From: Neocallimastix sp. 'constans'
Lineage: Eukaryota
Length of the DNA: 64,000 nt
Direction of reading: 5' to 3'
Assembly (NCBI GenBank): GCA_050613775.1
Contig: JBODTK010000011.1
Location: 992,001 to 1,056,000, forward strand
Shown: piece after piece, positions 6,509 to 52,159 of the stretch
Layout of the letters: each line of letters starts with the position of its first letter
How positions within the stretch are numbered: the first letter of the stretch is position 1
The notes under the pieces: generated by a model
Seen by the model: only the letters and a program-made list of their open reading frames with translations
The model's database searches: none
What the model was told of the DNA's origin: nothing
Translations under genes and position numbers: made by a program

Positions 6509-7891
<1,383 letters not shown>

Positions 7892-16920: not shown

Positions 16921-16992
16921 AGGGGCGTTCCGGATTTGAACCGAAGACCTATTGATCTGCAGTCAATTGCTCTACCGCTGAGCTAACACCCC
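16921..16992 (-). tRNA. tRNA-Cys(GCA), intronless
   Basis: Reverse complement GGGGTGTTAGCTCAGCGGTAGAGCAATTGACTGCAGATCAATAGGTCTTCGGTTCAAATCCGGAACGCCCCT folds as a full cloverleaf with GCA anticodon, U discriminator and a T4 run just downstream. Confidence 0.96.
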
Positions 16993-17507
16993 CATTTTCA
17001 TTTTTTTTTGATAAGAATGTACTAAATAATGCATTCTTAATTAAATCTACGATTTATTTCTAATACATTATGTGTACATTATTATTTTTGTACTTTAATA
17101 AATTTTTAAATCCAAAGATCAAAAATTAAATCAAAAATTATATTAAACTTTATGTTTTTATATTAAATCTTATATTAAAAGTAATATTTTTATATATTTA
17201 AAACTTATATTAGCAATATTAATAATAAATCTTATTTTTTTTTTTATATTAATAATGAAAATTTATATTAATAATATTTTTATATATTGATAATTAAAAA
17301 TTTATATATTATATTTTAACTTTTTATTATAAAATTTTATATCGAAATGTTTTATTTTATATTGAAAAATATTTTATTTTATTAAAAACCTTTATATTAG
17401 AATAGTATTTTTATTTTTATTTGAATATTTTAACAGATTGTAATAAAAATTATAGCCAATTAAATAAATTCTTATTAGTAATATTTTAGATATTTTTAAA
17501 TAAATAA

Positions 17508-17555
<48 letters not shown>

Positions 17556-17856
17556 TTTTATTAATATTATAAATGTATTTTATTTATATTGTTATAATTA
17601 AATTTTATATAATTAATTATAAAAATCAATTTAAATTTAATAGTTTTTATAAAAAAAAAAATAAATAAAATGTAATTTAGTGGCAAGAACAACTTTTATG
17701 CCTTGAAAAAGGTATAAATAGTTGTAAATTTTGCTACTAATTTTTAAATATCATCAAGTAAAATTAATAAAATAAATAAAAATAATAAATAAATAAATAA
17801 AATTTGTGTTTCCTTACTTTATTTTTATTTAATTCTCTAAAACCTTAACATTTATA

Positions 17857-17874
17857 TGGTGGAGATATCGGGGA
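17857..17874 (+). other. Primer-binding site, tRNA-Ala-like
   Basis: TGGTGGAGATATCGGGGA is complementary to ...UCCCCGAUAUCUCCACCA; lies 6 nt after the LTR. Confidence 0.8.
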
Positions 17875-18881
17875 ATTAAATAGAAATAATAGTAAATAAC
17901 ATAGATTTTTTTTTAATTTTTTTTATTTTATATTGATAAACAAGTAAGTCGTTAATCCTTTGATTAACCTATGGCGCTTGTTTGATATATATATAAAAAA
18001 AAAAAAATTTTTTTTAAATAAGTAAAATTAAGATTCTAAAAAAACAAATTTTGTAAAATTATAACAAGGAGCGGATAGAGCTCATACACAGTGTATTCTC
18101 AGATAGCAACAAATTAACTCTATTCATAGTAGGTTATTGAATAGTAGTTAATTTGGAGATTAATTGGAAAGTAGACGAAGGTATTTGGTTACCGACCCGG
18201 TAATAATAGTTCAGCCTTCAACGTTTCAACACACGAAGGTGCGGGTACTTTCCAAGCACTGGCGAATAAGGAGCTTACGTCACCGAAGGCGTAAGATTGT
18301 TTTTTTTATATATATTTTTTTTTACTTTTCTTTGTGCTAGTTATAAGGCACTTTATTATATAAAGTATCAGACTTTGGCTAACTTCGCCATTTAAATTTT
18401 TTTTATTTTTTTTTTTATTACTGATACTTTATTTGTTTAATAATTCCTGTAAAAGAATCTTAATTTACTTTGAAAATATTGTGTTTTTAGTTAATTTTTA
18501 TTAGTTAATAAAAATATTATTGAATACTTTTAAAATTTTTTTTTATTCCGTACATAGATTATCGGATTAAGTTTATCCTACATAGTAATTGGGCTAGTGG
18601 GCTCTGAACTGCTATATTTTATATTGAATATAGTAATCGTGGCACACGCGTGGCATGACACCATTAGGTAAGCTGCACGTCAGACAGTGTGTACTATCAG
18701 ATTGTACGACAATAAAGATTATTTTTTTTTTGTATTTAATAATTATAATTAATTAATAATTTTATTAGCTATAACAATACAATATTTATCGTTTAAAAAG
18801 AAAAATTTTTGAAAGGTGAAAATAACAAATAAAACTTTGCTTCTAAATTTATTACTACAAATATACTAAATTACAAAATTC

Positions 18882-19151
18882 AAGTGGTCGATAAAGATTT
18901 CGAGCTTGAAAAATATTCTATTAAGTTGTCGATAAAGATTTCGAACTTAAAATTATTCTATTAAGTTGTCGATAAAGATTTCGAACTTAAAATTATTCTA
19001 TTGAGTTGTCGATAAAGATTTCGAACTTAAAAATTATTCTATCGAGTTGTCGATAAAGATTTCGAACTTAAAAATTATTCTTAATAAAGTAGTCGAAAAG
19101 AACCTCGTGCTTTATAATTTCTACTAAGTTGTCGATAAAGATTTCGAGCTT
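18882..19151 (+). repeat. ~7 tandem ~40-bp hairpin repeats in the Gypsy-1 5' UTR
   Basis: AAGTTGTCGATAAAGATTTCGAACTT core repeated with ~40-bp period. Confidence 0.9.
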
Positions 19152-19260
19152 ATATCTACTAAAGAAAGCAAATAAAATTATTATTTTCAAAAGTTACTAA
19201 AATATATTGTTTTAAAAATTGATTCGATATTAAATTACCTATTAAATTATATTTTTAAAG

Positions 19261-20238
19261 TTGTATTTCCAAATTTATTCTTATTTAATCACCTCATTAA
19301 TATACAACAAGAAATATTTAAACAAAATGTCCAAGGAAACAACTTTGAGCTTTAAAGAATTGAAAAAAGAATTAAGAGATATTGTGAAACTTAGCAAGGA
19401 CAATTTAGATATTAAGTCCTGGGCTACTGAATTAAAACTTTGGATCAAGATACAAGGTATTACAGATCCAGAAACAATATTTAATGCTTGTTTACTTACC
19501 AGCTCTGGTGAAGTACAACGCGTTATTGAAGATTTGGGAGAAGATAGTGATGATGAAAGTGATGATTCATCAGATGAAGAAGAAGAAGATGATGAAGAAG
19601 AAAATGTTGATGATGATATTAAATTTCCTTCTCTTGGAAAAATCATTTCAAGTCTTGAAAATTTTTACGGTATTAAAGAAGACCAAAATTTACTTCTTAA
19701 AGAACTTCGTGCAATGCGAATTAAAAGAAACGAAAAGATTAAAGACTTTAATGTAAGATATAGAACTTTGTACACTAAACTTGATAAAAAGAGAAGAAAG
19801 CGCATCGGTGTACTAGATTATATTGATTCTATTCAAAATAATTATGAAGCCTGGAAGAAATTATCCCTTAAAGATGATATAAGTATGGAGAAAGCTTTCA
19901 AAATTGCCGAGAAAGTAGATAGACTTTCTGTAAGGAACAATAATATTAATACCTATAATGTTAATAATTCCCAGCATAATCAAAATAATCAAAACAGTAC
20001 TACTTCAAGACTTTATCCTAAAAGAAGAAACGAAACTTTCCAAACAAGTCAAACAAATAATAAACCGAAACCTCAAGATATTATAGAAGAATCAACCCAG
20101 AAAATGAGAAATTTATCTATTAAAACTTGCTTCTTTTGTAAGGAAGAAGGTCATTACTCATACTATTGCCCTCAATTAAATAAGATTATGGAAAAAAATA
20201 AAAAAGAAATATATTCCAAAAAGTCTTTAAACTTCTAA
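19261..20238 (+). CDS. gag: Gypsy-1 Gag (likely ATG start at 19327)
   Basis: CFFCKEEGHYSYYC zinc knuckle; ends in TTTAAAC slippery site. Confidence 0.9.
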   Translation: MYFQIYSYLITSLIYNKKYLNKMSKETTLSFKELKKELRDIVKLSKDNLDIKSWATELKLWIKIQGITDPETIFNACLLTSSGEVQRVIEDLGEDSDDESDDSSDEEEEDDEEENVDDDIKFPSLGKIISSLENFYGIKEDQNLLLKELRAMRIKRNEKIKDFNVRYRTLYTKLDKKRRKRIGVLDYIDSIQNNYEAWKKLSLKDDISMEKAFKIAEKVDRLSVRNNNINTYNVNNSQHNQNNQNSTTSRLYPKRRNETFQTSQTNNKPKPQDIIEESTQKMRNLSIKTCFFCKEEGHYSYYCPQLNKIMEKNKKEIYSKKSLNF

Positions 20239-23200
20239 ATGGGAGCAGAAGCACTCCCAATGACAAAACAATAGCTTCATTAAATAATTTACAAAATAAT
20301 ACTTTTACTAAGAATACTCCAATTGATAATAATTCCTTTAATGAAGAATCTGAAGAATTTGATTTTAGTGACACACCTGATAGTGAGGATGATATCATTA
20401 TAAATGCTATAAAAAGAAAAATGAATGATAATAACAGCGAAAAAGAAGAAAGTAATTCCAAGAAAGTACATAAAAGTTTAAAAGATAATCCACGTCCTTT
20501 CGCAACTCCTGCTTTAAGAAAGAAGAAAGAAAATGAGCTACATAATAAACCAAATAAAGCTTATAAAAATCAAATACTTCCATCAATTTTAACTCAACCA
20601 AATATTAACAAAGAAAAACAAAAAGAAAAGGAATTAAGAAATATGACAAGAGTAAGAGAAAGTAAAGAAGAAAACAACAATTATTCATCAAAAGGAAAGG
20701 AAAAAGTTGAATCAGAAGATATACTTGTAATCGATAATGAAATAGAAGATCTAGAAATGAATAAAGATAATCAACAAAATAAAACTAATACTTTGGAAAA
20801 ATTAATTTCAACAAAAACTAAAGAAACTAATAATGGAAATACTCAGTTAGTAAAAAGGAATATTAAAATGATGAATAATAAAGAACCTTACAATATTATG
20901 GATGATTTAAATAATCTTAAATCCAGTATTACGATAGGTCAACTCTTGAATGCATGTCCGAAAATTCGTTCACAACTAACTCAAGGTTTAAAGTTAGAAA
21001 AATCTAAAATAATTGGAACTGTAGACAATGTAATAGCACGAACTTTATTAGTAAATAACTATGATCATAGCTACATAAGTAAAAGTAATGAAGTAGCCGA
21101 AGAAGACTTAGCAATGGTTGATGCAAGTGTTGACGGAGTACTAGGAAAACTTTTAATTGATTCTTGTAGTAACCTAAGCATCGTTACTAAGCAGTATTTT
21201 GATAAATTACCTGGTGAATATGAAACAGTTGGAAAAAGTCGTGGAAGAATCCAACTAGCAACACAAGATGAAGAATACTCGGAAGGAATTATTGTTCGAT
21301 TACCAGTAAAAATTAATAATTATGAATTTAATGCGGACTTTAGAATTATTGAGAAAGAAGACTCTTTTTATGATATGTTAATAAACTTTAAAACTCAAAT
21401 CGATCATTGTTTATTTATTCATCCGACCTTAAACAGTTTATGTAAACTTTTGTCAGAAAGTGAATACGAAGAAATAGCTAAAATAAATAATCAATATTAT
21501 GATGAAGAAAGTATAATTTGCACTATTAGAAAAGTTAAAGAAACGAATAATGAAAAGGAAATTATAAAGGAATTAACTCCAATGGAATTTATTGAGAGTG
21601 ATGAATTTTTAAGTACCTTAAATAAAGATTATAAAGAACAAATTATTAAAATTCTCAAAGAAATGATTGACATAGTTGCCACTTCAACAGAAGAACTAAC
21701 TCCTTCTAAACTTTCACCACATAAGATCCGTTTAAAAGCAAATTCAAAGCCAGTAAAATTAAGAAGTTATAGGTTAACTAAATTAAAATCAGATATCTTA
21801 AAAGAAGAACTTACAAAACTTATTAAGAAAGGATTGATAGAACCATCCTGTTCAGAATGGTCATCTCCAGTAGTACTTATTCTAAAACACAATGGAAAGT
21901 GGCGCTTGTGCATTGACTACCGAAAAGTCAATGATATGACAGAAAAAGATTCTTATTCAGTTCCATATATAGATGAAATTTTTGATAGTCTCGGAGGAGC
22001 TAAAATATTTACAACTCTTGATTTATTTTCTGGTTTTCACCAAATCTTAATGGATGAAGAAAGCGTTGAAGTAACCACTTTCACTACTAAGTTTGGAAAT
22101 TATCAATTTAAGGTTATGCCTTTTGGACTTACTGGAGCTCCCTCAACCTTCCAAAGAGAAATGAATAAAATTTTATTCCCTTTTATTGGTGAATTTGTTT
22201 ACGTATTTATTGATGATGTTTTGATCTATTCAAAAAGTATCGAAGAACATTTAATTCATATTAAACAAGTATTAGAAGTATTTAAAGAAAACAAGTTAAA
22301 AATTAATATTGAAAAGTGCCATTTTCTTCAAACTGAAGTTGATGTATTAGGTCACAAACTTACTACTAAAGGATTAAGTCCCATGGAAAGTAAAATAACA
22401 GCTATTAAGAAGTGGGAAGCCCCTTCATCAATTCATGAATTAAGATCATTTCTAGGAGCAGTAGGATATTATCGTGACTTTATTCCTAAATATGCTCAAA
22501 TTACCTCACCTTTATGTAAATTATTGAAAAAGAATACTAAATATGAATGGAATAAAGAACAACAAGAAAGCTTTGAACTCCTAAAAGAAAAATTAATCAA
22601 TGCACCTATTCTAAAATTTCCGTCATTTGACAAACCTTTTATCATTAGAACTGATGCTTCGTATAATGGAATTGGTGGAGTTCTTTTACAAAAAGAAGAA
22701 GAAACCGGTAAGGAGCATCCAATACACTTTATAAGTAGAAGTTTAAAGAAAGCTGAAAAGAATTATGGTATTACCGATTTGGAAGGAACCGCTTTGTTTT
22801 ACTGTATGACTAAATTTAAATCTTATATTGAAGGAAATCCACTACCTACAACTATTTACACAGATCATAAACCATTAGTTGGTTTATTTAAGAATAAAGA
22901 ACCTTTGAATGCAAGGCAAACAAGATGGTGTCTAACCGCTAGTATGCTTGGAATTAATATAAAATATGAATCAGGCAAAAAGAATGTGTTAGCTGATGCT
23001 CTTTCAAGAATGAAAAGTAAGGAAGAGAGAAAGATATTATTAACAAAAATTACTAATGGAAATAATGAAGAATTATTATCTAAAGTTATAAAGGAATTTA
23101 TTAATGAAAAGTTTACTGTTATTGATGGTGAAGATTACTTTATCGACAATGGAAATTATAGAAAATTAATAACGGACGAAAATGAAAGGTTTAAATTAAT

Positions 23201-24236
23201 TTTAGAAGCTCATAATATTGGCCACGAAGGATATTACAAAACATATCAAAGACTTAAGAAAAACTTTTATTGGAATCATATGATTAAAGATATCAAAAGA
23301 ATTGTTAGTAATTGTGAAAAATGCCAATTAAATCGTCCTCAACCATATCCAGAACCAACCGAAAACCATCCGACTAAAGTGGAGGGTCCCTTTGTGCATT
23401 TAGGATTAGATATTATAGGACCGTTACCAAAAACAAGAAATAATAATCAATATATTATAGTAACTGTTGATTACTTTACCAAATGGGTTGAAGCCGAACC
23501 CACTGAAAACATAACTTCCTCTGATATAATTAAATTTTTAATAAACGTTTTTGCAAGACATGGTGTACCTCAAGTTATTACTACTGATAATGGAGTCCAA
23601 TTCACTTCTGATATGACTAAAATCTTTCTTGATCTTTATGATGTATATGTTAAATTTGTAGCTACTTACCACCCTGAATCAAATGGCCTTACTGAAAATC
23701 GAAATAAAGAAATTGGAAAATTACTTCGTTTATTAGGAAGGAAAAATCAAGATTGGGATGAAGTTTTACCTTCTGCTTTATGGGCACTTCGAACTACCAA
23801 AAATACAGCTACTGGACATTCTAGTTTTGAATTAGTATATGGAAGAGAAGACCAACAGCCTTATGATATAGCCATAAGAACAATTGAAAATGCAGGTAAA
23901 TCATATGATGAAATTTTAATGGAAAAATTTGTTCGTCATTATCAATGGACTAGAGAAGCATGCGAAAATGTGAAGAATGCTAACAAGTATTGGGCAACAA
24001 GACGAGAAGAACAAATAAGTATGAAAAAGGGAAAAGAATTAAAGGCTGGTGATCTTGTTCTTGTTAGAAACTTTAGCCGCACTAAGCTAGAACCATATTA
24101 CAATGGACCATTTAAAATTTTAAAAATTCAATTCAACACGGCAACCCTAATCGATCAGAAGACTGGAAAGCAACTCGATAGGAATGTTCACTTTAAAAAT
24201 TTAGTAAAGTTTAACTCCGCTTACAGAGAAGCTTGA
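20232..24236 (+). CDS. pol: Gypsy-1 Pol (PR-RT-RNaseH-IN), expressed by -1 frameshift
   Basis: -1 frame is open from the slip site; DSC protease, FIDD RT, TDAS RNase H, HHCC/DDE integrase, GPF motif. Confidence 0.93.
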   Translation, partial: LLNGSRSTPNDKTIASLNNLQNNTFTKNTPIDNNSFNEESEEFDFSDTPDSEDDIIINAIKRKMNDNNSEKEESNSKKVHKSLKDNPRPFATPALRKKKENELHNKPNKAYKNQILPSILTQPNINKEKQKEKELRNMTRVRESKEENNNYSSKGKEKVESEDILVIDNEIEDLEMNKDNQQNKTNTLEKLISTKTKETNNGNTQLVKRNIKMMNNKEPYNIMDDLNNLKSSITIGQLLNACPKIRSQLTQGLKLEKSKIIGTVDNVIARTLLVNNYDHSYISKSNEVAEEDLAMVDASVDGVLGKLLIDSCSNLSIVTKQYFDKLPGEYETVGKSRGRIQLATQDEEYSEGIIVRLPVKINNYEFNADFRIIEKEDSFYDMLINFKTQIDHCLFIHPTLNSLCKLLSESEYEEIAKINNQYYDEESIICTIRKVKETNNEKEIIKELTPMEFIESDEFLSTLNKDYKEQIIKILKEMIDIVATSTEELTPSKLSPHKIRLKANSKPVKLRSYRLTKLKSDILKEELTKLIKKGLIEPSCSEWSSPVVLILKHNGKWRLCIDYRKVNDMTEKDSYSVPYIDEIFDSLGGAKIFTTLDLFSGFHQILMDEESVEVTTFTTKFGNYQFKVMPFGLTGAPSTFQREMNKILFPFIGEFVYVFIDDVLIYSKSIEEHLIHIKQVLEVFKENKLKINIEKCHFLQTEVDVLGHKLTTKGLSPMESKITAIKKWEAPSSIHELRSFLGAVGYYRDFIPKYAQITSPLCKLLKKNTKYEWNKEQQESFELLKEKLINAPILKFPSFDKPFIIRTDASYNGIGGVLLQKEEETGKEHPIHFISRSLKKAEKNYGITDLEGTALFYCMTKFKSYIEGNPLPTTIYTDHKPLVGLFKNKEPLNARQTRWCLTASMLGINIKYESGKKNVLADALSRMKSKEERKILLTKITNGNNEELLSKVIKEFINEKFTVIDGEDYFIDNGNYRKLITDENERFKLILEAHNIGHEGYYKTYQRLKKNFYWNHMIKDIKRIVSNCEKCQLNRPQPYPEPTENHPTKVEGPFVHLGLDIIGPLPKTRNNNQYIIVTVDYFTKWVEAEPTENITSSDIIKFLINVFARHGVPQVITTDNGVQFTSDMTKIFLDLYDVYVKFVATYHPESNGLTENRNKEIGKLLRLLGRKNQDWDEVLPSALWALRTTKNTATGHSSFELVYGREDQQPYDIAIRTIENAGKSYDEILMEKFVRHYQWTREACENVKNANKYWATRREEQISMKKGKELKAGDLVLVRNFSRTKLEPYYNGPFKILKIQFNTATLIDQKTGKQLDRNVHFKNLVKFNSAYREA

Positions 24237-24753
24237 GTCTTCGTCGGGGCATCTTGATAAGAATGTACTAAATAATGCATTCTTAATTAAATCTACGATT
24301 TATTTCTAATACATTATGTGTACATTATTATTTTTGTACTTTAATAAATTTTTAAATCCAAAGATCAAAAATTAAATCAAAAATTATATTAAACTTTATG
24401 TTTTTATATTAAATCTTATATTAAAAGTAATATTTTTATATATTTAAAACTTATATTAGCAATATTAATAATAAATCTTATTTTTTTTTTTATATTAATA
24501 ATGAAAATTTATATTAATAATATTTTTATATATTGATAATTAAAAATTTATATATTATATTTTAACTTTTTATTATAAAATTTTATATCGAAATGTTTTA
24601 TTTTATATTGAAAAATATTTTATTTTATTAAAAACCTTTATATTAGAATAGTATTTTTATTTTTATTTGAATATTTTAACAGATTGTAATAAAAATTATA
24701 GCCAATTAAATAAATTCTTATTAGTAATATTTTAGATATTTTTAAATAAATAA

Positions 24754-24802
<49 letters not shown>

Positions 24803-25102
24803 TTTTATTAATATTATAAATGTATTTTATTTATATTGTTATAATTAAATTTTATATAATTAATTATAAAAATCAATTTAAATTTAATAGTTTTTATAAA
24901 AAAAAAAATAAATAAAATGTAATTTAGTGGCAAGAACAACTTTTATGCCTTGAAAAAAGTATAAATAGTTGTAAATTTTGCTACTAATTTTTAAATATCA
25001 TCAAGTAAAATTAATAAAATAAATAAAAATAATAAATAAATAAATAAAATTTGTGTTTCCTTACTTTATTTTTATTTAATTCTCTAAAACCTTAACATTT
25101 TG

Positions 25103-26612
25103 TGTAAGAAACTTAGATAAATTTATTATTTTATTATAAAATTTATCTATCTTTCTTATTTAATACATTAATTTAATACATTAAATTATTGTATTTATTT
25201 TAACCAATAATATTTAATTATTAATTTATATATATTTGATTCTCTTGAGTTCTCTTCGAGAAATCAAGAGTTATTATTTTAGAATTTTTATAATAAATAA
25301 TAATTCAAATAAACTAATTAATTAATAAACCAAAACCTTTTAAATAAAACATATTTTATAAATATTTGTGTCTTTTATTCCTTTTGTGTTATTGTTTATT
25401 ATAAACTTTCTATAATAAACTCTATCTTATATTTAAGTTAAGTATAATTATTTATTTATATTATTATTATTTATTTATTTATTAATACAAAATATATATA
25501 ATATATAATATAAATTTATAAATTATTGTTCATTTAATTATTTATTTAAAATAGATTTTAATTCAAAATTTAAATTTCATTTTTTTAAATTGAAATTGCA
25601 ATTAAATATTTATTTTAATTTTATTTAAATTTTATTTCTTTTAATATTTCTTAATTTATTATTTTTTAAATTGTTCTTCTTTCATTGAACAATTCAAATG
25701 AAAAGGAGCAATGTAAGAAATACAAATAAATTTATTAATAATTTATTTACATTTCTTAGTTATTATAATTTATTTAATTTAATATTTATTTATTCATTTA
25801 ATAATATAGTCATTTTATTTAATTTTATATTTATTTATACACTTAATAATTATATTTTATTTAATTTATAATTATTTATTCACTTATATTTATATATTAG
25901 TTAGAAAACAATATTAAGGTTTTCCCAAGTTAATTGGTTTTACTTAATATTGATTCGTCTAGAGTTTTTCCGCTAATCTTTTCTCTAGATGTTAAAAAGT
26001 TAAGGTTAGCAAAACTTTCAATAAATTATTTAAATTTATATTTTTTTTGGTTAATTATAATTTTTATTTTAAATATACTACTTCCTATATAATAATGAAT
26101 TTATACAAATTCATTAAGTAAAGGGAGCAATGTAAGAAACTTGGATAAATTTATTATTTTATTATAAAATTTATCTATCTTTCTTATTTAATACATTAAT
26201 TTAATACATTAAATTATTGTATTTATTTTAACCAATAATATTTAATTATTAATTTATATATATTTGATTCTCTTGAGTTCTCTTCGAGAAATCAAGAGTT
26301 ATTATTTTAGAATTTTTATAATAAATAATAATTCAAATAAACTAATTAATTAATAAACCAAAACCTTTTAAATAAAACATATTTAATAAATATTTGTGTC
26401 TTTTATTCCTTTTGTGTTATTGTTTATTATAAACTTTCTATAATAAACTCTATCTTATATTTAAGTTAAGTATAATTATTTATTTATATTATTTTATATT
26501 TATTTAATTATATTTAATTTTATTTTCTCAAATTAATGTTAATTAGTAATAATTAATGTTAATTTGTAGTTAAGAAATTATTTATAATTAATTTTATAAG
26601 TAATTTCTTACA
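25103..26612. mobile_element. Element Y: non-coding LTR-derived (TRIM-like/chimeric) insertion
   Basis: TGTAAGAAA...TTTCTTACA; TSD TTTTG at 25098-25102 and 26613-26617; 25103-~25470 repeated at 26131-~26490; PPT-like AAAGG(G)AGCAA before TGTAAGAAA at 25712 and 26131. Confidence 0.85.
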
Positions 26613-27942
26613 TTTTGATACGGGGTGTCACTAAATACCTTGTATTTCTTATCAAATACTCTTAATTGTTAAGATTTTGATATAATTTATAATTTAAATT
26701 TAAATAAAATATTATGTTTTAATAAAAATATTCACTAAGTCGATATGTCTATATAGTAATATACTATATAGATATATAATAATAATAATAAATATTTAAA
26801 TGTTTAGTTTAATAAAAATTTATTTATAATAAACTTTGATAATTAGAATTATCAAATTAATTTGATTTTAAATTTATTGATTTTATTTAATAATAAAATA
26901 TCTATAATATATTACTATTAAGGTAATTTTACAATAACCTTACAAAGAACATAAAAGATAGATTTTTACATCTTTCTTTTATACTTTGTAAGTTACATAA
27001 TAATAATATTTAATTATAAGATAATAATAATATAAATAATAATAAAATATAAGGATAAATTTAATTATATAATTAATTTGAATAATTGAATTTAATATAG
27101 ATATGTTGTAAACATATATAAAAACATAATATAAATAAAATACACGTGACGTCAAATGTATCATTGAAATTAATTATTAATATAAACCTTATTTATTAAT
27201 ATTCTCAGGATTATTAGGCCTAAGATAACCCTTTAAATATTAAACAAGAATTTATATTAATTATTAATTATTTAAATATATATATTATTTATAATTAAAT
27301 AAATAATATTTTTAATTATTGAAATGTAAATAACTGAAATTGAGATTTCAATTCAGTTATAATTTCAACAACGCCCTCCCATAAAAATCGGATTCAAGAC
27401 GATTTTTGTGTAACGATACGGAGGTCTAAATTTTTATTAAAAAATTTTTTGAAATTTCATAAATTAAAAATTTTTTAATTTCAAAGGAAGAAGGTCGCTT
27501 GAGTCCTTTTAAATTTTTATAGGAACCCCCATTTCAAGTGACCATTTCATTGAAATTTTGAAATTTCTAAAATTTAGTAAAATTAAAATTTAGTTAATGA
27601 AATTGATAGTTGTGAATATAATGGTACCATTTTTGAATGAATTTGATTTAGAATTTTTGAAATTGAAATTTTGAAATTTAATTTCAATTAACTTCTTAAT
27701 TTGTTGCATTAAATTTTAAAAAAATGAAAATTATAATAATTTATAAAATTTTAATTATGTTGAATTATAAATTGATTGTTAAGAGTGTAATATAGCTATA
27801 TTTTTTGAATTTTTGAATTTTTGAATTTTGAAATTTTGAAATTGAAATTTCATTTTAGAAATATTGAAAAATTAAAATTAACTAAAAAAATAGATAATAA
27901 TAAAGTAAAAGTTAAAAAATTAATAATAAAAAATAAAATTTC

Positions 27943-27975
<33 letters not shown>

Positions 27976-27981
<6 letters not shown>

Positions 27982-35832: not shown

Positions 35833-35892
<60 letters not shown>

Positions 35893-38105: not shown

Positions 38106-38528
38106 AATACAATTTGAAATTAAAAATTTTTCTTTAAAATCTTGAAAATAAAATTTATTATTTTTAAAAAATTTAATTTGAAAATTTAACCAAACAAATT
38201 GATCTAATTTGGTAGTTCTGCCTGAAATACCTTTAACTAGGATTTTATTTTTTGTTTTTTGAATATTTAGTTTCAATTTATTTGCTAATTTTTCTGTGAT
38301 AAAATTGCAAAAGGATCCTGAATCTAACATAGATTCAGAAGTTAATTTTTGAATTTTTTCATTTTTAATTGAAAAATTATTTAAGAATTTAATAGGAATA
38401 TAAGATTTGAATAAAAGGAATGTAGATGGGAGATTTGATTCATTGATTGAATCAAGTGTAGGAAAATTATAATAAATTGTTTTTAAATTTTTTGATGTTC
38501 TGGATTCCTTTTGAAGCCCATCAATTAG
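38106..38528 (-). pseudogene. pol: Gypsy-2 Pol, 5' part (protease LDSGS)
   Basis: -1 frame is open from A AAA AAC at the gag end through MLDSGSFCNF. Confidence 0.85.
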
Positions 38529-40350: not shown

Positions 40351-42120
40351 AATAATAAAATTAAATTATTATTAAATATTCTTATTAAAATCTTTTATTA
40401 ATATCAAATATAATAAAAATTATTATTAAATATTCTTATAAATTTCTTTTATTAATATTAAATATAATAAAAATTATTATTAAATATTCTTATAAATTTC
40501 TTTTATTAATATTAAATATAATAAAAATTATTATTTAATATTCTTATAAAATTCTTTTATTAATATTAAATATAATAAAAATTATTATTAAATATTCTTA
40601 TAAATTTCTTTTATTAATATTAAATATAATAAAAATTATTATTAAATATTCTTATTAAAATCTTTTATAATAAAAATTATTATTAAATATTCTTATAAAA
40701 TTCTTTTATTAATATTAAATATAATAAAAATTATTATTTAATATTCTTATTAAAATCTTTTATAATAAAAATTATTATTAAATATTCTTATAAAATTCTT
40801 TTATTAATATCAAATCTAATAAAAATTATTATTAAATATTCTTATTAAAATCTTTTATTAATATCAAATATAATAAAAATTATTATTAAATATTCTTATA
40901 AAATGCTTTTATTAATATCAAATCTAATAAAAATTATTATTAAATATTCTTATAAAATTCTTTTATTAATATCAAATCTAATAAAAATTATTATTAAATA
41001 TTCTTATTAAAATCTTTTATTAATATTAAATATAATAAAAATTATTATTAAATATTCTTATTAAAATCTTTTATTAATATCAAATATAATAAAAATTATT
41101 ATTAAATATTCTTATTAAAATCTTTTATAATAAAAATTATTATTAAATATTCTTATTAAAATCTTTTATTAATATCAAATATAATAAAAATTATTATTAA
41201 ATATTCTTATTAAAATCTTTTATTAATATCAAATATAATAAAAATTATTATTAAATATTCTTATTAAAATCTTTTATAATAAAAATTATTATTAAATATT
41301 CTTATAAAATTCTTTTATTAATATCAAATCTAATAAAAATTATTATTAAATATTCTTATTAAAATCTTTTATTAATATCAAATATAATAAAAATTATTAT
41401 TAAATATTCTTATTAAAATCTTTTATAATAAAAATTATTATTAAATATTCTTATAAAATTCTTTTATTAATATCAAATCTAATAAAAATTATTATTAAAT
41501 ATTCTTATTAAAATCTTTTATAATAAAAATTATTATTAAATATTCTTATTAAAATCTTTTATAATAAAAATTATTATTAAATATTCTTATTAAAATCTTT
41601 TATTAATATCAAATATAATAAAAATTATTATTAAATATTCTTATTAAAATCTTTTATAATAAAAATTATTATTAAATATTCTTATTAAAATCTTTTATAA
41701 TAAAAATTATTATTAAATATTCTTATTAAAATCTTTTATTAATATCAAATATAATAAAAATTATTATTAAATATTCTTATTAAAATCTTTTGTAATAAAA
41801 ATTATTATTAAATATTCTTATAAAATTCTTTTATTAATATCAAATCTAATAAAAATTATTATTAAATATTCTTATTAAAATCTTTTATTAATATCAAATA
41901 TAATAAAAATTATTATTAAATATTCTTATTAAAATCTTTTATAATAAAAATTATTATTAAATATTCTTATAAAATTCTTTTATTAATATCAAATCTAATA
42001 AAAATTATTATTAAATATTCTTATTAAAATCTTTTATTAATATCAAATCTAATAAAAATAATTATTAAATATTTTATTAATATTAAATATAATAAAAATT
42101 ATTACTAAATATTCTTATTA
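40351..42120. repeat. Minisatellite of ~54-bp and ~41-bp unit variants inside element X
   Basis: AATAAAAATTATTATTAAATATTCTTATTAAAATCTTTTAT(TAATATCAAATAT) repeated over ~1.75 kb. Confidence 0.93.
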
Positions 42121-44079
42121 AAAATTATATAATATTTAAATCATTACTAATTCTTATTTTTATATTAAGAATAATAAAAACCTATTTCAATAAATATTTG
42201 ATGTAAAATACAGAATTATAAGTTTCTGTATAATATTTTCTAAAACCTTTGAAATAAACTAAAAATAAAACAAAAATTAAAAATAAATTAAATCTTTATT
42301 AAAATAAAAATGAACTAAAATACAGAAGAATTCCAATAATAAAAATGATCTAAAATACAGAAAATATCAATTCTGTATAATTCTCTCTCTGAATAACAAT
42401 ATCAAGAAGAAGCTACCGCCCGGAATGCCCTTCGTGATACAAGCTCCAAATTAATTTTTTATATTTTAATTTAATAAATGTTATTTTTTTTTAAAAAAAT
42501 AATTTAAAATAATAGTTAAAAATTAAAATAAAATAGTTATAATAGTTTTTTTTTTATAAAGAATATATTAATAATAAATAAAATGTATTAAAATAAAAGT
42601 ATAAAAAGAAGAATAAATTTCTTTCTTTTTAATACTGGGAACAAATAATTTTAATTTTAAATTTAAATAAAGAATATTTTAAAATTTAATTTTTTTTTTC
42701 TTGTTTCCAAACTTATTTTTATAGTTATGTGTTAATATTTATTTTTTTTTTGTTTTGAATATCTTAGTGTTTCAACCCCAGCCCGTATCATTTTTGTTAC
42801 GGAACTAGCCAAAATACAATAAACTAATGATTTAAATTATACAATTCGAAATTATAATTAAATTTAATAACTTTATATGTTAATTAATTTAAACTATTTT
42901 TATAATTTCATATTTTTATTTTTAATTTAAAATAATTATATAAATTATCAAATTAAATTGATTAATAACTAATTATTAAATAATTATTATTTTATTAAAT
43001 TGATTAATGACTAATTATTAAATAATTATTATTTTATTAAATTGATTAATGACTAATTATTAAATAATTATTATTTTATTAAATTGATTAATGACTAATT
43101 ATTAAATAATTATTATTTTATTAAATTGATTAATGACTAATTATTAAATAATTATTATTTTATTAAATTGATTAATGACTAATTATTAAATAATTATTAT
43201 TTTATTAAATTGATTAATGACTAATTATTAAATAATTATTATTTTATTAAATTGATTAATGACTAATTATTAAATAATTATTATTTTATTAAATTGATTA
43301 ATGACTAATTATTAAATAATTATTATTTTATTAAATTGATTAATGACTAATTATTAAATAATTATTATTTTATTAAATTGATTAATGACTAATTATTAAA
43401 TAATTATTATTTTATTAAATTGATTAATGACTAATTATTAAATAATTATTATTTTATTAAATTGATTAATGACTAATTATTAAATAATTATTATTTTATT
43501 AAATTGATTAATGACTAATTATTAAATAATTATTATTTTATATTAATTAAATTGATTTATTATTATATTTAATTATTATTTATATTAAAATGTTTTAAGA
43601 ATTATATTATCGAAAATATTATCAATAATTTTATTGTTAAATTTATTAATTTTATCATTATTAATATTTTGTCATTAAAAATAATATTAATTATATTAAT
43701 ATTAATATTTTTATTATTAAAATAACTTTTAAAAAATATTATTAAAATCACATGTAATAATTAATTCTAATAAGAATTAAAATAATTATAAAATTCATGT
43801 AGTAAAAAAAAAAAAAATATAAAAGAAAAAGAAAATACTTAATAAAAAATTTAAGAGTTAATAAAAGATAAAAAAAAGAAAATCTAATTATTAAGAATAT
43901 ATTATTTTTGAAAATAAAAATTTAAATTATTCGAAATCCTGCAACATTTGGCGAGCTATGCAGGACTCAATCAAAAATAATATGAAAATTAATAATTGAA
44001 AATAAAATATTGAGTTAAAAATAATTGTTTTAAAAAAAAAAAAAATTTTTAAAAAAAGCGAAAAAGAGAAGAGTAGAAA

Positions 44080-44934
44080 ATGAAGATTTTGGAATTAGAA
44101 GAGCTACTTCCTAGATTGGACGAAAACTTGAAGGACGTGGACTCTTGGGGAGACGAGTTTATTCGAATAATGAAACTAGCCAACATTACTAGTCCTTCTA
44201 GTATTCATACTTGGGCCATGGAATGCACAGAAGGGAAACTCAGAGGAGTTTTACAGGAGCTTGTGACTACTGATCAAGAAGGAAATGAAGTCTACCCATC
44301 GTTTCAAGAAATAAAGAAAGCGTTAGAAGACGCAATGGAAATAACCCCTCAAGAGAAGTGCAAAAGACTTCAGAAGATGGTTATTCAAAAAGGAGAGTCT
44401 ATTAAAAATTTTAATTGGAGGTATAAAAAGCTATACAATAATCTTAGTAAACTTTATCAGACCTTTATAACCGTAGACGACTATATCGATTTCATAGCTT
44501 ACAGACCTTACGCAAGAGCTCAAGTAATAACGCAAAGGTGTGAAGATCTTGAAGAGGCATTCGAAGAAGCAGAACTCGCTGAGAGAGCCGAAGAAAGAAG
44601 GAATAAAGGAAATGAAACTATCATGACAGCCGTATATACTAATCAAAGTTCTAGGCTAGATAAATTTATAAACAAAAATCATCCATTCAAACAATTTGGA
44701 ATCAATAATCATCAACAGAATGATAATATAAACTATTATGGTAAAAACAGTAAAGCAAATCAAAAATTTAAAAATAATTCTGTAATTTCCAAGAAACCAT
44801 CAAAGGAGTTAAAATGCTTTAAATGTAACCAAATTGGACATGTAATTAGACAGTGTCCATATAGTTATAAAGAGTTAGCCGAAATGGAAAAATCTGGAAA
44901 GTTGACAACTGAAAATAACTCTTTAAACTATTAA
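44080..44934 (+). CDS. gag: Gypsy-3 Gag
   Basis: CFKCNQIGHVIRQC; TTTAAAC slip site at 44922-44928. Confidence 0.9.
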   Translation: MKILELEELLPRLDENLKDVDSWGDEFIRIMKLANITSPSSIHTWAMECTEGKLRGVLQELVTTDQEGNEVYPSFQEIKKALEDAMEITPQEKCKRLQKMVIQKGESIKNFNWRYKKLYNNLSKLYQTFITVDDYIDFIAYRPYARAQVITQRCEDLEEAFEEAELAERAEERRNKGNETIMTAVYTNQSSRLDKFINKNHPFKQFGINNHQQNDNINYYGKNSKANQKFKNNSVISKKPSKELKCFKCNQIGHVIRQCPYSYKELAEMEKSGKLTTENNSLNY

Positions 44935-47900
44935 TGGGAAGAAGGAAAACTTCCACTAATCAAACCAATAATTTAAAACTAGACGTAATAGCCGTAGCCG
45001 CAAGAAACGCAAAAGATAAGCAGAAATATCAACCTTATGAGAAATTACAAAAAATAACAACCTTAAGGGATAATCCAATTCCAATACCAGTTCCAACAAA
45101 TAGGAAAGAAAATAATTTAAAAAGAACCAACAATAAAATAGTGATAGAAGAAAAACAAAATGATTCTAATACAAATGAAAATACTGAAAAATTGAAAGAA
45201 ATTGATCTATCAGTAATTGCTCAACCTTCAATAAACAAATCAAAAAAGGACTCGAAAGAACAAAGAAATAAAGATATATATCAAGAAGCAAAAGTAATGA
45301 ATGAATCCAACTTAAATAAAAAAGACTCTTTCTCAAAAGGTAAACCAAATTCTAAGCAAAAACATATAGCAATGTTAGAACCGCAACATGAATATGATAT
45401 AAATACAGATTTAAATTCAATAACAGCGAACATTACATTTGCACAGTTGTTAGATATTAGTCCAAAACTACGCTCTCAATTAACTAAAGCTTTAAAGTTA
45501 AAAAATGTCCAATGTGATGATAAAATGGAAGAAGTCATTTTATCAGCCATATCCAAAGATGACATTGCAACATGTGAATGTTATATCAACGGTAGAAAGG
45601 GTAGTGCATTTTTAGACACGTGTGCAAGTATTAATATAATTTCAAGAAAATTTTTAAAGAATTTAGGAACTTTGAAACCTTTTGGTTACACTACTAATAA
45701 TATCATACAAATCACTACAAAAACTAGCATTTCTTCTGAACTTTACTTATTAAAAGTTGAAATTGGAAAATTATGTATTCAAGACATATTCCGAGTAATT
45801 GATTATGAACAAGACTTATTTGATGTACTTATAGGCTACAAAACTTTAAAAGAAAATAATTTATTTATAAATCCAATCAATAATTATTTATGTCAAATGA
45901 ATGAAAATGAAAGTTTTAAGAAAATAGTATTATTATCAAATGATACAAATGATTCAAACTGTATCGAAAAAGATAATGAAGACAACTTTGACAATGATTC
46001 TATGCTATTTTGTTTTATCAATAAAATTAATACGTCTAATGAAGTCAATAAAAAATAAGCAACTAACACTAAAATTGATGAACCTATAACAATGGAAATG
46101 AAAAATGATGATACAGAATCCAAACAAGATAATGAGGAAAACAATATAGGAACAAAAAACATTTCTAATGAAAAAAGAAACTTGGTTATGCAAATAATAG
46201 ATGAGAGCCCATCGTTTATTAGGAAAAAAATTTAAAAAATTATTGAAAAACAACATAGAAATCTTAGCTATCAAAATTGATGAATTGGGAAGAACAAAGC
46301 TATTACCACACTCTATTCAAATTAAAGAAAATACAACTCCAATAAAACAAAAATGTTACAGACTATCAAAGATTCAAGCGCAAGCACTTAAAAAAGAAAT
46401 TATAAAATTACTACGAAATAAATTAATAGAGCCTTCCTGTTCTCCATGGTCCTCACCTGTAATTCTTGTTCTAAAGAAAAATAATAAATGGAGAATGTGT
46501 ATCGACTTCAGGAAATTGAATAATGTTACCATAAAAGACGCCTATTCATTGCCATTAATAGATGATATTCTTTTTTCTATAGGGAAAAATGTAAAGATTT
46601 TTACGACATTTGATTTATTCTCCGGGTTTCATCAAATCCCGATGAACCTTGAAGACATCCCAAAAACTTCTTTCACTACGATGTATGGGAATTACCAATT
46701 TAAAGTTATGCCTTTCGGACTCTGCAACGCCCCAGGAACCTTTCAACGCGAAATGAATAGGATATTCCTTCCTCTAATTGGGAAATGCATGTTTATTTAC
46801 ATTGATGATTTGATTATATTCTCTACCAGTCTTGAAGATCATATTTCAGATCTTAATAAAGTTTTTCAAATTATAAAAGAAAACGGTCTAAAAATCAATC
46901 TTGAAAAATGTAAGTTTTTTAAAGAATCCGTCGAATTATTAGGTCACACTGTCTCAATCAATGGAGTCTCTCCTATTCCTTCAAAGACCAAGGTAATTTT
47001 TGAATGGCTTCCACCGTCAAACATTAACCAGTTACAATCCTTCTTAGGAGCCGTAGGATATTACCGAAAGTTTATTTTTAATTTCGCATCAATCGCTAAA
47101 CCTCTTTTTAAACTTTTAAAGAAAGGAGTGAAGTTTTCATGGGGGGAGAAAGAAAAAGAAAGATTTGAAGAATTAAAAAACCGTTTGATTACTGCACCTA
47201 TTTTATCGATGCCCGATTTTGATAAACAATTTATCATACGAACCGACGCCTCGTTTGATGGAATAGGCGGAGTACTGTTACAAAAGGACGATGCTGGAAA
47301 TGAGAAACCTATTCATTTTATAAGCCGTTCTTTGAAGCCAGCAGAAAAAAATTATGGAATCACTGACTTGGAAGGAACAGCCGCTTTTTATTGTGTTAAA
47401 AAATTTAAACCTTATATTTCTGGAAACAAACAAGAAACGTTACTCTTCACCGACCACAAGCCATTAATAGGACTTTTTAAAAATAAGGAAACAATGAACT
47501 CTCGACAAACAAGATGGGTTTTACTTCTCTCTATGTTAAAGGTAAATATAATTTACGAACCAGGGAAGAAAAATGTCATAGCAGACGCGTTATCCAGGAT
47601 GAGAATGAAAAATGAAGAAGTAGTAGCAACCTTATTGTCCGACTTGAACATTAATATTGACAACAAACTAATTAGTAAATTCAATGATAAATTTATCAAG
47701 GTTAATAACGAGGAATATTTTGTTAATCAAGGATCTCTAAGAAAAGTTATAAAAGAAGATAAACAAAAAATTAAATTAATTCTCGAGGCACACAGGATTG
47801 GACATGAAGGGGTATTCAAGACTTATAACCGACTGAAGAGAGACTATTACTGGGTAAACATGATATTAGATGTTAAGTATTTTGTTAGTACATGCAAAAA

Positions 47901-48843
47901 ATGTCAGTTATTTAAACCGCAGACTTTTAATACTCAAACGGAGAATATTCCCACAAAACCGGGCTTACCTTTCACTGTAGTAGGATTGGATATCGTAGGG
48001 CCATTACCGGTAACAGAAAAAGGAAATCAGTATATTATAGTCTTAGTAGACTACTTAACAAAGTGGGTAGAAGCTGAGCCCACTGGTACCATTGATTCAA
48101 ATGATGTAATATTTTTCTTAACTAAGGTGTTTTCGAGACACGGTATACCAGAAATTTTAATAACAGACAATGGTCCTCAATTCCGTTCAGACAAAACTAA
48201 AGCCTTCCTAGATCTTTATGATCTTTATGGAGTCTATGTAAAATATATTTCTGTTTATCATCCTGAATCAAATGGAATGGTAGAAAACAGAAATAAAGAG
48301 ATTGGGAAATACCTTAGGATATTATGCAATAATAATACACATAAATGGGACGAAATACTTCCTAGTGCTCTTTGGGCTCTCAGAACCTGTAAAAATGAGT
48401 CAACTAAGTTTTCCAGCTTCGAACTTTTATACGGTCGTCGAGACTTCCAACCCTTTGAGCTAACTATCAATTTAGACAAGAAAGAAGAATATGAGAGTGA
48501 AGAAGAATACCTTATTAGGAAGTTTACTAGACATCACTTATGGATTAAAGAAGCTATAGAAAATATTCAAACTGCCAATAAGTTATGGGAAGACAGAAGA
48601 AACCAAATGAAGCGATTAAAAGCAGAATATAAACCAGGAGAACTAGTTTTGATTAGAACAATTAATAGGAAAAAACTTGAACCTTTCTTTGTAGGACCTC
48701 TAAAAATAGTAAAGCAACAATATAATACAGTAACTTTATGCGACCCCATCACTAATGAAATTGCGAATAGAAATGTGCATCTGAAAAATATAGTTCCGTA
48801 CAAATTATGCGAAATTGAAACTTCTGGGACGAAGTCCAATTAA
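44928..48843 (+). pseudogene. pol: Gypsy-3 Pol, broken between PR and RT (stop at 46056 plus frame change)
   Basis: ORF 44934-46058 (DTC protease) and ORF 46201-48843 (YIDD RT, RNase H, IN) are in different frames. Confidence 0.85.
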
Positions 48844-49756
48844 AAAGGGGGCGTCATGTTACGGAACTAGCCAAAATACAATAAACTAATGATTTAAATT
48901 ATACAATTCGAAATTATAATTAAATTTAATAACTTTATATGTTAATTAATTTAAACTATTTTTATAATTTCATAATTTTATTTTTAATTTAAAATAATTA
49001 TATAAATTATCAAATTAAATTGATTAATAACTAATTATTAAATAATTATTATTTTATTAAATTGATTAATGACTAATTATTAAATAATTATTATTTTATT
49101 AAATTGATTAATGACTAATTATTAAATAATTATTATTTTATTAAATTGATTAATGACTAATTATTAAATAATTATTATTTTATTAAATTGATTAATGACT
49201 AATTATTAAATAATTATTATTTTATTAAATTGATTAATGACTAATTATTAAATAATTATTATTTTATTAAATTGATTAATGACTAATTATTAAATAATTA
49301 TTATTTTATTAAATTGATTAATGACTAATTATTAAATAATTATTATTTTATATTAATTAAATTGATTTATTATTATATTTAATTATTATTTATATTAAAA
49401 TGTTTTAAGAATTATATTATCGAAAATATTATCAATAATTTTATTGTTAAATTTATTAATTTTATCATTATTAATATTTTGTCATTAAAAATAATATTAA
49501 TTATATTAATATTAATATTTTTATTATTAAAATAACTTTTAAAAAATATTATTAAAATCACATGTAATAATTAATTCTAATAAGAATTAAAATAATTATA
49601 AAATTCATATAGTAAAAAAAAAAAAAATATAAAAGAAAAAGAAAATACTTAATAAAAAATTTAAGAGTTAATAAAAGATAAAAAAAAGAAAATCTAATTA
49701 TTAAGAATATATTATTTTTGAAAATAAAAATTTAAATTATTCGAAATCCTGCAACA

Positions 49757-52159
49757 TTTTTGAACATATTTTTGGAATTATTTCATGCTGTTGAAATTAT
49801 AATTGAATTGATGTTAAGATTTTGATATAATTTATAGTTTAAATTTAAATAAAATAATATGTTTTATTAAAAAATATTCACAAAGTCGATATGTCTATAT
49901 AGAAATATACTATATAGATATATAATAATAATAATAAATATTTAAATGGTTTAGTTTAATAAAAATTTATTTATAATAAACTTTGATAATTAGAATTATT
50001 AAATTAATTTGATTTTAAAATTATTTATTCTATTTAATAATGAAATATCTATAATATATTACTATTAAGGTAATTTTACAATAACCTTACAAAGAACATA
50101 AAAGATTTTTACATCTATTAAAAATATTATTTATTTAATTATAAATAATAAATAATATATAATTATATAATTAATAATTAATATAAATTCTTGTTTAATA
50201 CTTAAAGGGTTATCTTAGGCCTAATAATTCTGAGAATATTAATAAATAAGGTTTATATTAATAATTAATTTCAATGATACATTTGACGTCACGTGTATTT
50301 TATTTATATTATGTTTTATATATATTTAAAACATATCTATATTAATTTTAATTATTCAAATTAATTATATAATTAAATTTATCTTTATATTTTATTTATA
50401 TTTATATTACTATATTATTAATATCTTATAATTAAATATTACTATTATGTAACTTACAAAGTATAAAAGAAAGATGTAAAAATCTATCTTTTATGTTCTT
50501 TGTAAGGTTATTGTAAAATTACCTTAATAGTAATATATTATAGATATTTCATTATTAAATAAAATAAATAATTTTAAAATCAAATTAATTTAATAATTCT
50601 AATTATCAAAGTTTATTATAAATAAATTTTTATTAAACTAAACCATTTAAATATTTATTATTATTATTATATATCTATATAGCTTATTACTAATAGACAT
50701 ATCGACTTAGTAAATTTTTAATAAAACATATTATTTTATTTAAATTTAAAACATAAAATATATCAAAATCTTAACATCAATTGTAAAATAAATTGATTGA
50801 TTAGGTAAGATTATTGAAAAGTTTTTATAGGAGGTAAGATTATAGTTAAATCTTATTGAGTGGTAGGTTAGATTCTTGCTATATCTTTCCTAATTTGGGT
50901 TAAATTGGTCAGGTCAAGATGCTCTTATTAATTATGACAATTTAATTAAATTAAAATAATAAATAACACACACAGAGTTTTACAATTAAGAATTCAATCT
51001 TTAAGATTTATGTTTTATTAGAACTTTATTTAATATATATTTTAATAATAAAATTAACTAAGATTAATATAAGAATTATTTATTGTTATAATTAATTCAT
51101 TAACTTTAGGTTAATTGTTTAGAATTTATAAGGTTAATAGGTTAATAGGTTACTAAGTTAATAGGTTATAAGTTAATAGGTTATAAGTTATAAGGTTAAT
51201 AATCTTACAAAGAATTCAAAATATGGAATTTCAAATCCTTTTTATACTAAGCTAAAATAATAATTAACAATATAATTAAATAATACATTCTAATCTTAAT
51301 ATATTCATACATGTATATAAACTATATAAGATATAATAATAAAATAATATTAATAAAAATCTTTTAATACAATAACTATTTAATTATTCAAAAAACAATT
51401 TAATAATAAAACTAATTTAATAATAAAATAATATAAAATTAAATAAAATATTAAAACTAATTAAAAATTCTCATTCGGAAATCTTTAGAATGATAAAGAA
51501 TTCCTTAGAATCTTTTAGAAAATAATTGAATAAAAATATTATAATAAGATATATAAAAATTTATAAACTTATTTAAAATATTAAAAAATTATTACTAATA
51601 ACTAATTCTGTATTTTTAATTAATAATAAAAATTAATAATATAATTTCCAAGTTAAGAGATTTTATCTAATATAGATTTCTTAATTAATAATTTAGGGTT
51701 TTAACTAAATAATTAAATTATTTTTTATATTTAAAATATCTTTAAAGTCCAATATCTCATTATTTAGGTGTCCAATAAGGTTGATTTTAACATATGCTAT
51801 AGTTTTCGTCCGTAGCTTTCTAATGAATATAATTTTAGCGGTAAATCACAATATTTTATTTCCATTATTTGTCGTGTTGTCGTTGTTTTTCTTCAAGTTA
51901 TTTTTTATCAAATTCTTAAGGGTTAAATTAAATTAAATTATCTTTAATAAATAAGTCCAAACCCTTTGGTTTCTAATTATTTAATGTTTCTAATAATTAT
52001 TTTTATAATTAAAATCGAATTAAAATAATTTTTGTCAATAACTAAATTAAATTTCAATTGATCTAATAGTGAATTTTAATCTCAAATCCACTAGAATTCG
52101 TGACATCAATTCAATTATAATTTCAACAGCATGAAATAATTCCATAAACATGCTCAGAA
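49757..52159. repeat. Fold-back: left arm 49757-50116; right arm ~50472-50781 + 52106-52159; built from Gypsy-2-family LTR plus tRNA upstream flank
   Basis: TGAACATATTTTTGGAATTATTTCATGCTGTTGAAATTATAATTGAATTGA-TGTTAAG... is mirrored by ...CTTAACA-TCAATTCAATTATAATTTCAACAGCATGAAATAATTCCATAAACATGCTCA. Confidence 0.88.
50782..52105. mobile_element. Solo LTR W inserted in the right arm of the fold-back
   Basis: TGTAAAAT...CGTGACA; TSD TCAAT at 50777-50781 and 52106-52110. Confidence 0.8.

Follow-up and report, generated by a model that had tools for sequence, protein, structure and literature searches.

Why should several long terminal repeat (LTR) retrotransposons lie end to end, a few base pairs apart, on one side of a single tRNA gene? 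This question is raised by a stretch of 64,000 nucleotides from Neocallimastix sp. 'constans' (contig JBODTK010000011.1, positions 992,001 to 1,056,000), here called the window, in which the sole tRNA gene found, tRNA-Cys(GCA), is followed on its upstream side by the Ty3/gypsy element Gypsy-1 (G1), by two segments named Y and X, by a further element, Gypsy-3 (G3), and by a repeat end named Z. An initial annotation, made from the sequence, had interpreted this arrangement as a Ty3-like serial stack of four LTR elements aimed at the RNA polymerase III (Pol III) start site. Our findings suggest that the serial stack was likely built by integrases tethered to the Pol III start site. For the G1 family the targeting of tRNA starts is very probable, and we lean towards the view that the placement of X, Y and G3 followed this rule too.

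Structure of the stack at the tRNA-Cys gene

The elements were removed stepwise in silico, and the distance from each end to the mature 5' end of tRNA-Cys (+1) was taken in the resulting states. These distances are 16 nt for G1, 17 nt for Y and 15 nt for each of X, G3 and Z. The coordinates, the target-site duplications (TSDs) and the stepwise removal confirm the tRNA-adjacent stack in most of its annotated details: G1 starts 16 nt from the mature tRNA (17009 against 16992), neighbours abut with 5 bp (G1 and Y), 3 bp (Y and X), 4 bp (X and G3) and 4 bp (G3 and the next element) between them, where 3-5 bp had been noted, and the removal of 32,753 bp, annotated as about 32.7 kb, produces the predicted string with eight T. 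In G1, G3 and Y the U3 end of the LTR faces the tRNA. The collapsed site had been regarded as empty; it probably is not, since the TG found there starts another repeat end, that of Z.

The order of insertion can be partly read from overlapping TSDs. As had been observed, the 5-bp TSD of Y contains the terminal TG of X, and G1 splits the left TSD of Y, the 4-bp TSD of G1 being the first four bases of it. The proposal that newer elements lie nearer the tRNA holds for X, then Y, then G1 and is unproven for G3, because the TSDs of X and G3 are both T-runs and leave the order of these two unfixed. The TSD is 4 bp long in G1, G3, Gypsy-4 (G4) and a solo LTR, the last two belonging to a second stack described below, and 5 bp long in Y, a Y-like element of that second stack, Gypsy-2 (G2) and a Ty1/copia element (Copia); the T-run at G3 could conceal a fifth base. 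Since the TSD of Y has 5 bp and that of G1 has 4 bp, at least two integrases were likely at work, and the one that moved Y was likely not that of G1.

The element nearest the tRNA is indeed intact. The LTRs of G1 (17009-17850 and 24255-25097) are near-identical, being 1 substitution and 1 gap apart, its gag open reading frame (ORF) occupies 19246-20238, and pol (20202-24236, 1,344 codons) overlaps gag in the -1 frame. The primer-binding site (PBS), which follows 17850, we take to be Ala-like and not initiator-Met-like. For the other members the count of four LTR elements needs qualification. Y is non-coding and shows some of the traits expected of non-autonomous LTR elements (of the kind of terminal-repeat retrotransposons in miniature, TRIM, or large retrotransposon derivatives, LARD), namely a TSD, purine tracts preceding 25712 and 26131, and no ORF; where such elements would have identical terminal direct repeats, Y has an internal direct repeat of two copies that match over only ~370 bp. 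X measures 2,491 bp once its nested insert is removed, its span of 16 kb being owed to G2 and Copia, and it carries a 54/41-bp tandem array at 40363-42134. Neither an LTR pair nor an ORF of its own was found in X, and beyond the array no direct repeat recurs within it; X is likely a solo LTR because the LTRs of G3 also carry arrays. The LTRs of G3 lie at 42795-43946 and 48857-49756; they contain 42-bp arrays, of 15 and 9 copies, respectively, and the pair shows 2 mismatches in 900 positions. The pol of G3 is broken by one stop and one frameshift. The LTRs of G2 (26667-27370 and 39633-40345) show 10 mismatches in 704. The first ~65 bp of Z recur inverted at 52095-52159. The features are collected in Table 1.

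Table 1. Positions of the tRNA gene and of the mobile elements in the window.
Feature	Positions	Strand	Remarks
tRNA-Cys(GCA), mature	16921-16992	minus	Rfam 67.9 bits, full model; ARAGORN; presumed target
Spacer, 16 nt	16993-17008		Last four T are the TSD of Gypsy-1
Gypsy-1 (G1), intact Ty3/gypsy element	17009-25097	+	LTR pair, gag, pol; 4-bp TSD TTTT
Y, non-coding LTR-derived composite	25103-26612	+	9-bp terminal inverted repeat; 5-bp TSD TTTTG
X, TG...CA segment	26616-42790		9-bp terminal inverted repeat; T-run TSD
Gypsy-2 (G2), chromovirus-type	26667-40345	-	Nested 51 bp inside X; 5-bp TSD TTAAT
Ty1/copia element (Copia)	31458-38105	+	Nested in G2; 5-bp TSD AATAC
Gypsy-3 (G3), same clade as G1	42795-49756	+	4-bp TSD TTTT
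Z, rearranged segment with inverted ~65-bp ends	49761-52156		Starts TG
Y-like element	52160-53115		5-bp TSD CAGAA, contains terminal CA of Z; opposed stack starts here
Gypsy-4 (G4), G1-clade-like, broken	53122-59357	-	4-bp TSD GAAA
Solo LTR, kin to the LTR of Gypsy-5	59362-59754	-	4-bp TSD GAAA
G6, TG...CA segment with 62-bp array	59761-61536		Right end recurs beside another G1 copy (run X1)
Gypsy-5, 3' LTR (61540-61936) and pol	61540-64000	-	Truncated by window edge

Copies of Gypsy-1 outside the window

Contigs of four public runs were aligned to the U3 end of G1. Among the 19 loose-end rows listed (9 further rows are unlisted), six are single-contig flanks, five of them distinct, and the rest are mixtures of 2-17 contigs or an internal junction. 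Among these listed rows, one of the five readable flanks is a different tRNA, one is tRNA-like and three end in CA. The 16-mer of the tRNA flank lies inside an ARAGORN tRNA in 113 of the 120 viral-contig loci that it matched (94 of them tRNA-Gln), and in 112 of these loci it starts at tRNA position 8-9, so that the +1 of this second tRNA lies about 15-16 nt from the G1 LTR. The gene points away from the adjoining G1, whose U3 end faces it, as in the window. For comparison, the A-box pattern occurs 13 times in the 128,000 strand-bases of the window, or ~0.001 per 11-nt register. This independent copy at ~15 nt from another tRNA supports the proposal of Pol III start-site targeting for the G1 family; for the other elements that proposal comes from one locus.

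In another flank, 9 bases only, compared by eye, resemble a tRNA 5' end at 19-20 nt. The three flanks that end in CA do so 3-4 bp ahead of G1 and resemble other element ends: one of them corresponds to the G6 end in the window (28/29 nt by eye and a 16-mer match, chance 0.01), one, from run X7, resembles by eye the right end of X, and the third is left unassigned. In 7 of 32 listed pieces the flank stops 32-33 letters out, a length that we infer to be the TSD plus an overlap into another repeat. The G1 LTR (17009-17480) is very abundant in all four runs, with a single-contig depth of 3,274-7,822 against 17-44 for the flank, depth not being copy number.

The locus itself was poorly represented. 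At the tRNA-Cys/G1 junction (16972-16992) depth was 0 in the four runs; for the downstream flank there is a match of 169 nt in run X1. No empty or partly filled alleles were seen in the four runs, where the junction itself had depth 0, an uninformative gap. The 23-nt LTR start of G1 had 0 matches in viral contigs. Two scans for related loci returned 1 and 80 distant viral loci. Prokaryote genomes contributed a further 13, of which 12 are interiors of gut-fungal elements with no tRNA and no usable flank. On 20 prokaryote-genome regions 13 tRNAs were called, none near an end of a window element, and they looked like the prokaryotes' own. Five prokaryote metagenome-assembled genomes (Methanosphaera, Erysipelotrichaceae, Bacilli) hold gut-fungal retrotransposon contigs as contamination, and one relative of G2 is annotated as a bacterial hypothetical protein.

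A second, opposed stack and a possible 66-nt register

A further stack of abutting elements, opposed to the first, begins at 52160 and leaves the window at 64000; its gaps measure 3, 6, 4, 6 and 3 bp. The overlap between the TSD of its Y-like element and the terminal CA of Z mirrors that between the TSD of Y and the terminal TG of X, and a GAAA site is common to members of this stack. Over both stacks, 8 of 9 inter-element gaps measure 3-6 bp with TG/CA ends intact; the ninth is similar, the left end of G6 being uncertain.

X and Z share a spacing of G2-type ends: in X the LTR end of G2, and in Z an LTR end of G2 type (49812), stand 51 bp within the segment. In the reconstructed states both ends (26667 and 49812) are 66 nt from the +1 of the tRNA, and the sequences of X and Z differ around the 51-bp entry points. 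This register is a post hoc observation on two cases, the second without a TSD, and the idea that chromovirus-type G2 uses a second register 66 nt upstream is accordingly tentative. Z contains a fold-back pair of G2-type LTRs (49812-50776), and its own inverted outer ends have unmatched flanks.

Classification of the elements

G1 and G3 are Ty3/gypsy elements (Metaviridae), with an LTR pair, gag, and pol in the order reverse transcriptase, RNase H and integrase. A protease match was obtained in G3 and G4 and none in G1 at E 0.01. The Pol proteins of G1 and G3 are 57% identical; that of G1 clusters at 90% identity with a Neocallimastix lanati protein and has a 55%-identical relative from Pecoramyces, matches that mark the host as an anaerobic gut fungus. 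In our tree all 17 of the 17 sampled rows of the G1/G3 clade stand on one long branch (SH-aLRT 100), outside the chromodomain-bearing group that holds G2, so that G1 and G3 belong to a clade of gut-fungal elements separate from the chromovirus branch. The tree is a quick search with 40 of 53 rows kept and Ty3 absent; the 13 rows dropped for short alignments include those of plants (Musa, Coffea, Primulina) and rotifers, and the tree thus supports no firm sister group for the G1 clade.

Judged from sequence, the C-terminal chromodomain extension is absent from G1 and G3. The G1 integrase aligns to Ty3 through residue 1444 of 1547 and ends 7 amino acids (aa) on, where Ty3 has 103 aa more. After the GPF/GPL motif the integrase tail measures 43 aa in G1 and 49 aa in G3, and both score only E 2.2-2.3 on a chromo-tail profile. 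G2 belongs to the chromovirus branch (Tf/sushi type), with a Tf2-type SH3 and a self-priming site with a 10-nt complement. Its C-terminal tail gives no Pfam chromo match; on the chromo-tail profile the tails of the G2 family (9 of 9) fall among the top 10 of 104 (E 0.003-0.22), that of G2 (27979-28200) is weakly chromo-like, and gut-fungal relatives at ~60% identity carry canonical PF00385. Ty3 scores 483 bits with G2 and 360 bits with G1, the query lengths being different. The LTRs of Copia end in TA, not CA, and no clear PBS follows its 5' LTR.

Alternative explanations

Several observations weigh against Pol III targeting, or at least against its reach over the whole locus. Rfam at E up to 5, ARAGORN and an A/B-box scan revealed no Pol III gene within the window for the opposed stack; such a gene may lie beyond 64000. 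No tRNA was found at the ends of a decayed G1-like remnant with a purine tract (14450-15760, ~14.4-15.8 kb) that lies ~1.2 kb downstream of the tRNA. Outside the window, the flank at the U3 end of G1 runs on unbroken for 121-284 letters in 6 of the 32 listed pieces (two of these, from two runs, are equally long), which may be copies without a tRNA there. The readable rows come from public contigs, not from a whole genome, and are biased to T-ending flanks, and metagenome contigs gave 1 match to the G1 LTR start, an internal junction. A Y-like LTR end, ~80% identical, lies inside the gag gene of a G1-clade element (L015:1-77). Finally, the LTRs of G3 look younger than those of G2 inside X (p=0.007), and since G2 sits within X, the distal G3 would be younger than X, in conflict with a strict order rule. 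The internal decay of G3 blunts this conflict: against a family contig, 10 of 2,615 positions differ, breaks included, and the comparison with G2 then loses significance (p=0.17). Homogenisation of the G3 LTRs is possible because their arrays differ in copy number and the interior has diverged. The mismatches in Y (2/363) and in the LTRs of G3 do not differ significantly (p=0.33, Fisher).

These points bear chiefly on the main rival, according to which integrases favour existing LTR ends or short T/A runs, so that one founder near the tRNA would account for the stack with no Pol III tether. The TSDs of the left stack, all of them T-rich, agree with it, as do the CA-ending sequences next to G1 in three of five readable flanks, the junction between the right end of an X-type segment and the U3 end of a G1-clade element that the window shows and that recurs, by eye, in run X7, the relative of Y inside a gag gene, and the lack of a Pol III gene for the second stack within the window; the young LTRs of G3 would fit an insertion at the junction of X and Z, far from the tRNA. 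Against this rival, ~15 nt again separate G1 from a tRNA gene in the copy outside the window, and both insertions of fixed order (Y and G1) took place on the tRNA side. Furthermore, the left 16.9 kb of the window offers 45 T7+ and 30 A7+ runs, and none of these 75 has attracted an LTR element that is intact there. We therefore regard a preference for element ends or T-runs as improbable.

It would be highly improbable that untargeted insertions merely accumulated in a repeat-rich, gene-poor region where selection kept them, the spacing being coincidental. Mobile DNA does make up most of the ~47 kb between 17009 and the window edge, the nesting of Copia bears no relation to the tRNA, and the G1 LTR reaches the very high depth given above; however, random insertion would break elements and not make them abut, as they do with intact TG/CA ends at eight of nine gaps. 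It is scarcely credible that the array is an artefact, with repeats joined at T-runs during assembly. The uncovered tRNA-Cys/G1 junction would be in keeping with it, except that this gap is uninformative, and against it stand the matching TSDs at G1, Y, G2, Copia, G3, the Y-like element, G4 and the solo LTR, two of which contain the terminal dinucleotide of a neighbour, a feature that a misjoin would not create.

Comparison with known targeting systems

Tethering to the Pol III start site, the reading we favour, has well-described precedents, and the stack is one that works like Ty3 and DGLT-A and is not a member of Ty3. In Ty3-type elements, a 5-bp TSD at the start site leaves 15-17 bp between the element and the mature tRNA (PMC5014426). 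The same 15-17 register and gene order are found in Ty3 and in Tyl3/Tyl6 of Yarrowia, G1 having a -1 gag-pol overlap; the spacing of G1 matches the Ty3 register with 16 nt in the window and about 15-16 nt at the second tRNA, and the terminal hexamer of Tyl3 is identical in Y (PMC5014426). Therefore, the label 'Ty3-like' is apt for the insertion position. In Ty3 the integrase binds TFIIIB (Brf1/TBP), its C-terminal chromodomain contacting Brf1. The likeness does not extend to kinship: the chromodomain is the distance 'ruler' of Ty3 (PMC8632968), whereas G1 and G3 lack the C-terminal chromodomain and G1 has a TSD of 4 bp, not 5 bp, and Ty3, which is outside the tree, has no close kinship to G1 and scores higher with G2.

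DGLT-A of Dictyostelium inserts 13-33 bp upstream of tRNA genes (PMC5006619), a range that includes the 15-17 nt seen here, and the G1 clade resembles it in lacking a chromodomain and in its short integrase tail, the two being placed side by side by description, not by sequence, and across kingdoms. DGLT-A is found in either orientation (PMC5911963), whereas G1, G3 and Y all turn their U3 end to the tRNA. Its RNase H binds the TFIIIC subunit Tfc4 (PMC6101501). For the 66-nt register, it is of interest that DGLT-As of D. lacteum insert at 55-65 bp and that in dictyostelid Skipper-2 tRNA targeting goes together with a diverged chromodomain (PMC5006619). Tj1 of Schizosaccharomyces japonicus, of the self-primed Tf type to which G2 appears to belong as well, inserts at tRNA genes in a fixed orientation, with 5-11 bp between it and the mature 5' end, and its transcription runs the same way as that of the tRNA (PMC4600332), whereas G1 is transcribed away from the tRNA and G2 maps at 66 nt. 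In Dictyostelium, TRE5 tandems grow by the addition of new elements upstream of an occupied tRNA gene, none being broken (PMC5391098), so stacking itself is not new; TRE5 differs in being LINE-type (long interspersed nuclear element) and in its position ~46-50 bp upstream, whereas the present stack is made of LTR elements, which come from several families and have no fewer than two TSD lengths.

Ylt1 of Yarrowia lipolytica has a 4-bp TSD and a tRNA-Ala primer, which would match the TSD of G1 and the Ala-like label that we give to its PBS. It is listed near tRNA start sites (PMC5911963). A kinship of Ylt1 and G1 is a lead only, drawn from descriptions without sequence comparison.

Proposed mechanism and significance

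The promoters of tRNA genes are internal. An insertion upstream consequently leaves the tRNA gene and its factors in place, and the target is recreated. We hypothesize that TFIIIC and TFIIIB would reassemble on the end of the newly inserted element, and that the next integrase would cut in the same register and duplicate 4 or 5 bp, the older elements being pushed outward. The G1 clade would need a tether other than the chromodomain of Ty3, and we favour, by analogy with DGLT-A, a contact with TFIIIC/TFIIIB through RNase H or the integrase N-terminus; a contact of TFIIIC of the DGLT-A kind may suit a short-tailed integrase better than the route of Ty3. The suggestion that several families share one system derives from a single locus, where Y and G1 differ in TSD length. 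Because the G1/G3 clade lies outside the chromovirus branch, has 4-bp TSDs and has no chromodomain, its tRNA targeting likely arose independently of Ty3.

A broader proposal may be formulated, although we consider it rather doubtful: a two-register system at Pol III genes in gut fungi, in which a gypsy clade that lacks the chromodomain, arose independently and is spread across the phylum would insert in a specific orientation at 15-17 nt and a chromovirus with a diverged chromodomain at 66 nt, giving multi-family arrays of tens of kb, whereby tRNA targeting would drive the expansion of a large genome and not protect a compact one. New here are the two chromovirus-type LTR ends at 66 nt upstream and the opposed second stack. 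No report of tRNA-start targeting in gut fungi was found in the open-access literature, supplements and repeat databases aside; in the portions available, a review of such targeting covers ascomycete yeasts and dictyostelids (PMC5911963), and PMC3248453 makes no mention of Neocallimastigomycota or tRNA.

If true, the independent targeting proposed here would imply a new tether, because the aiming domain of Ty3 is absent. The targeting of tRNA starts is usually explained by compact genomes. Neocallimastigomycota genomes are large (106.83 Mb in Pecoramyces F1; PMC6414434), and a further, apparently independent origin in this phylum, if true, would test that explanation. Engineering tools for gut fungi were not yet established in 2019 (PMC6883316), and G1, a native element that is intact, may have insertions that fall at predictable and harmless sites.

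Other features of the window

The window is very AT-rich. To the left of the tRNA gene are two polyubiquitin reading frames, at 2464-3387 (4 units) and 6509-7891 (6 units), and between them an ORF of 225 codons (5075-5752) with a Cys/His cluster and no Pfam match, which we take to be, possibly, the tail of a non-LTR element.

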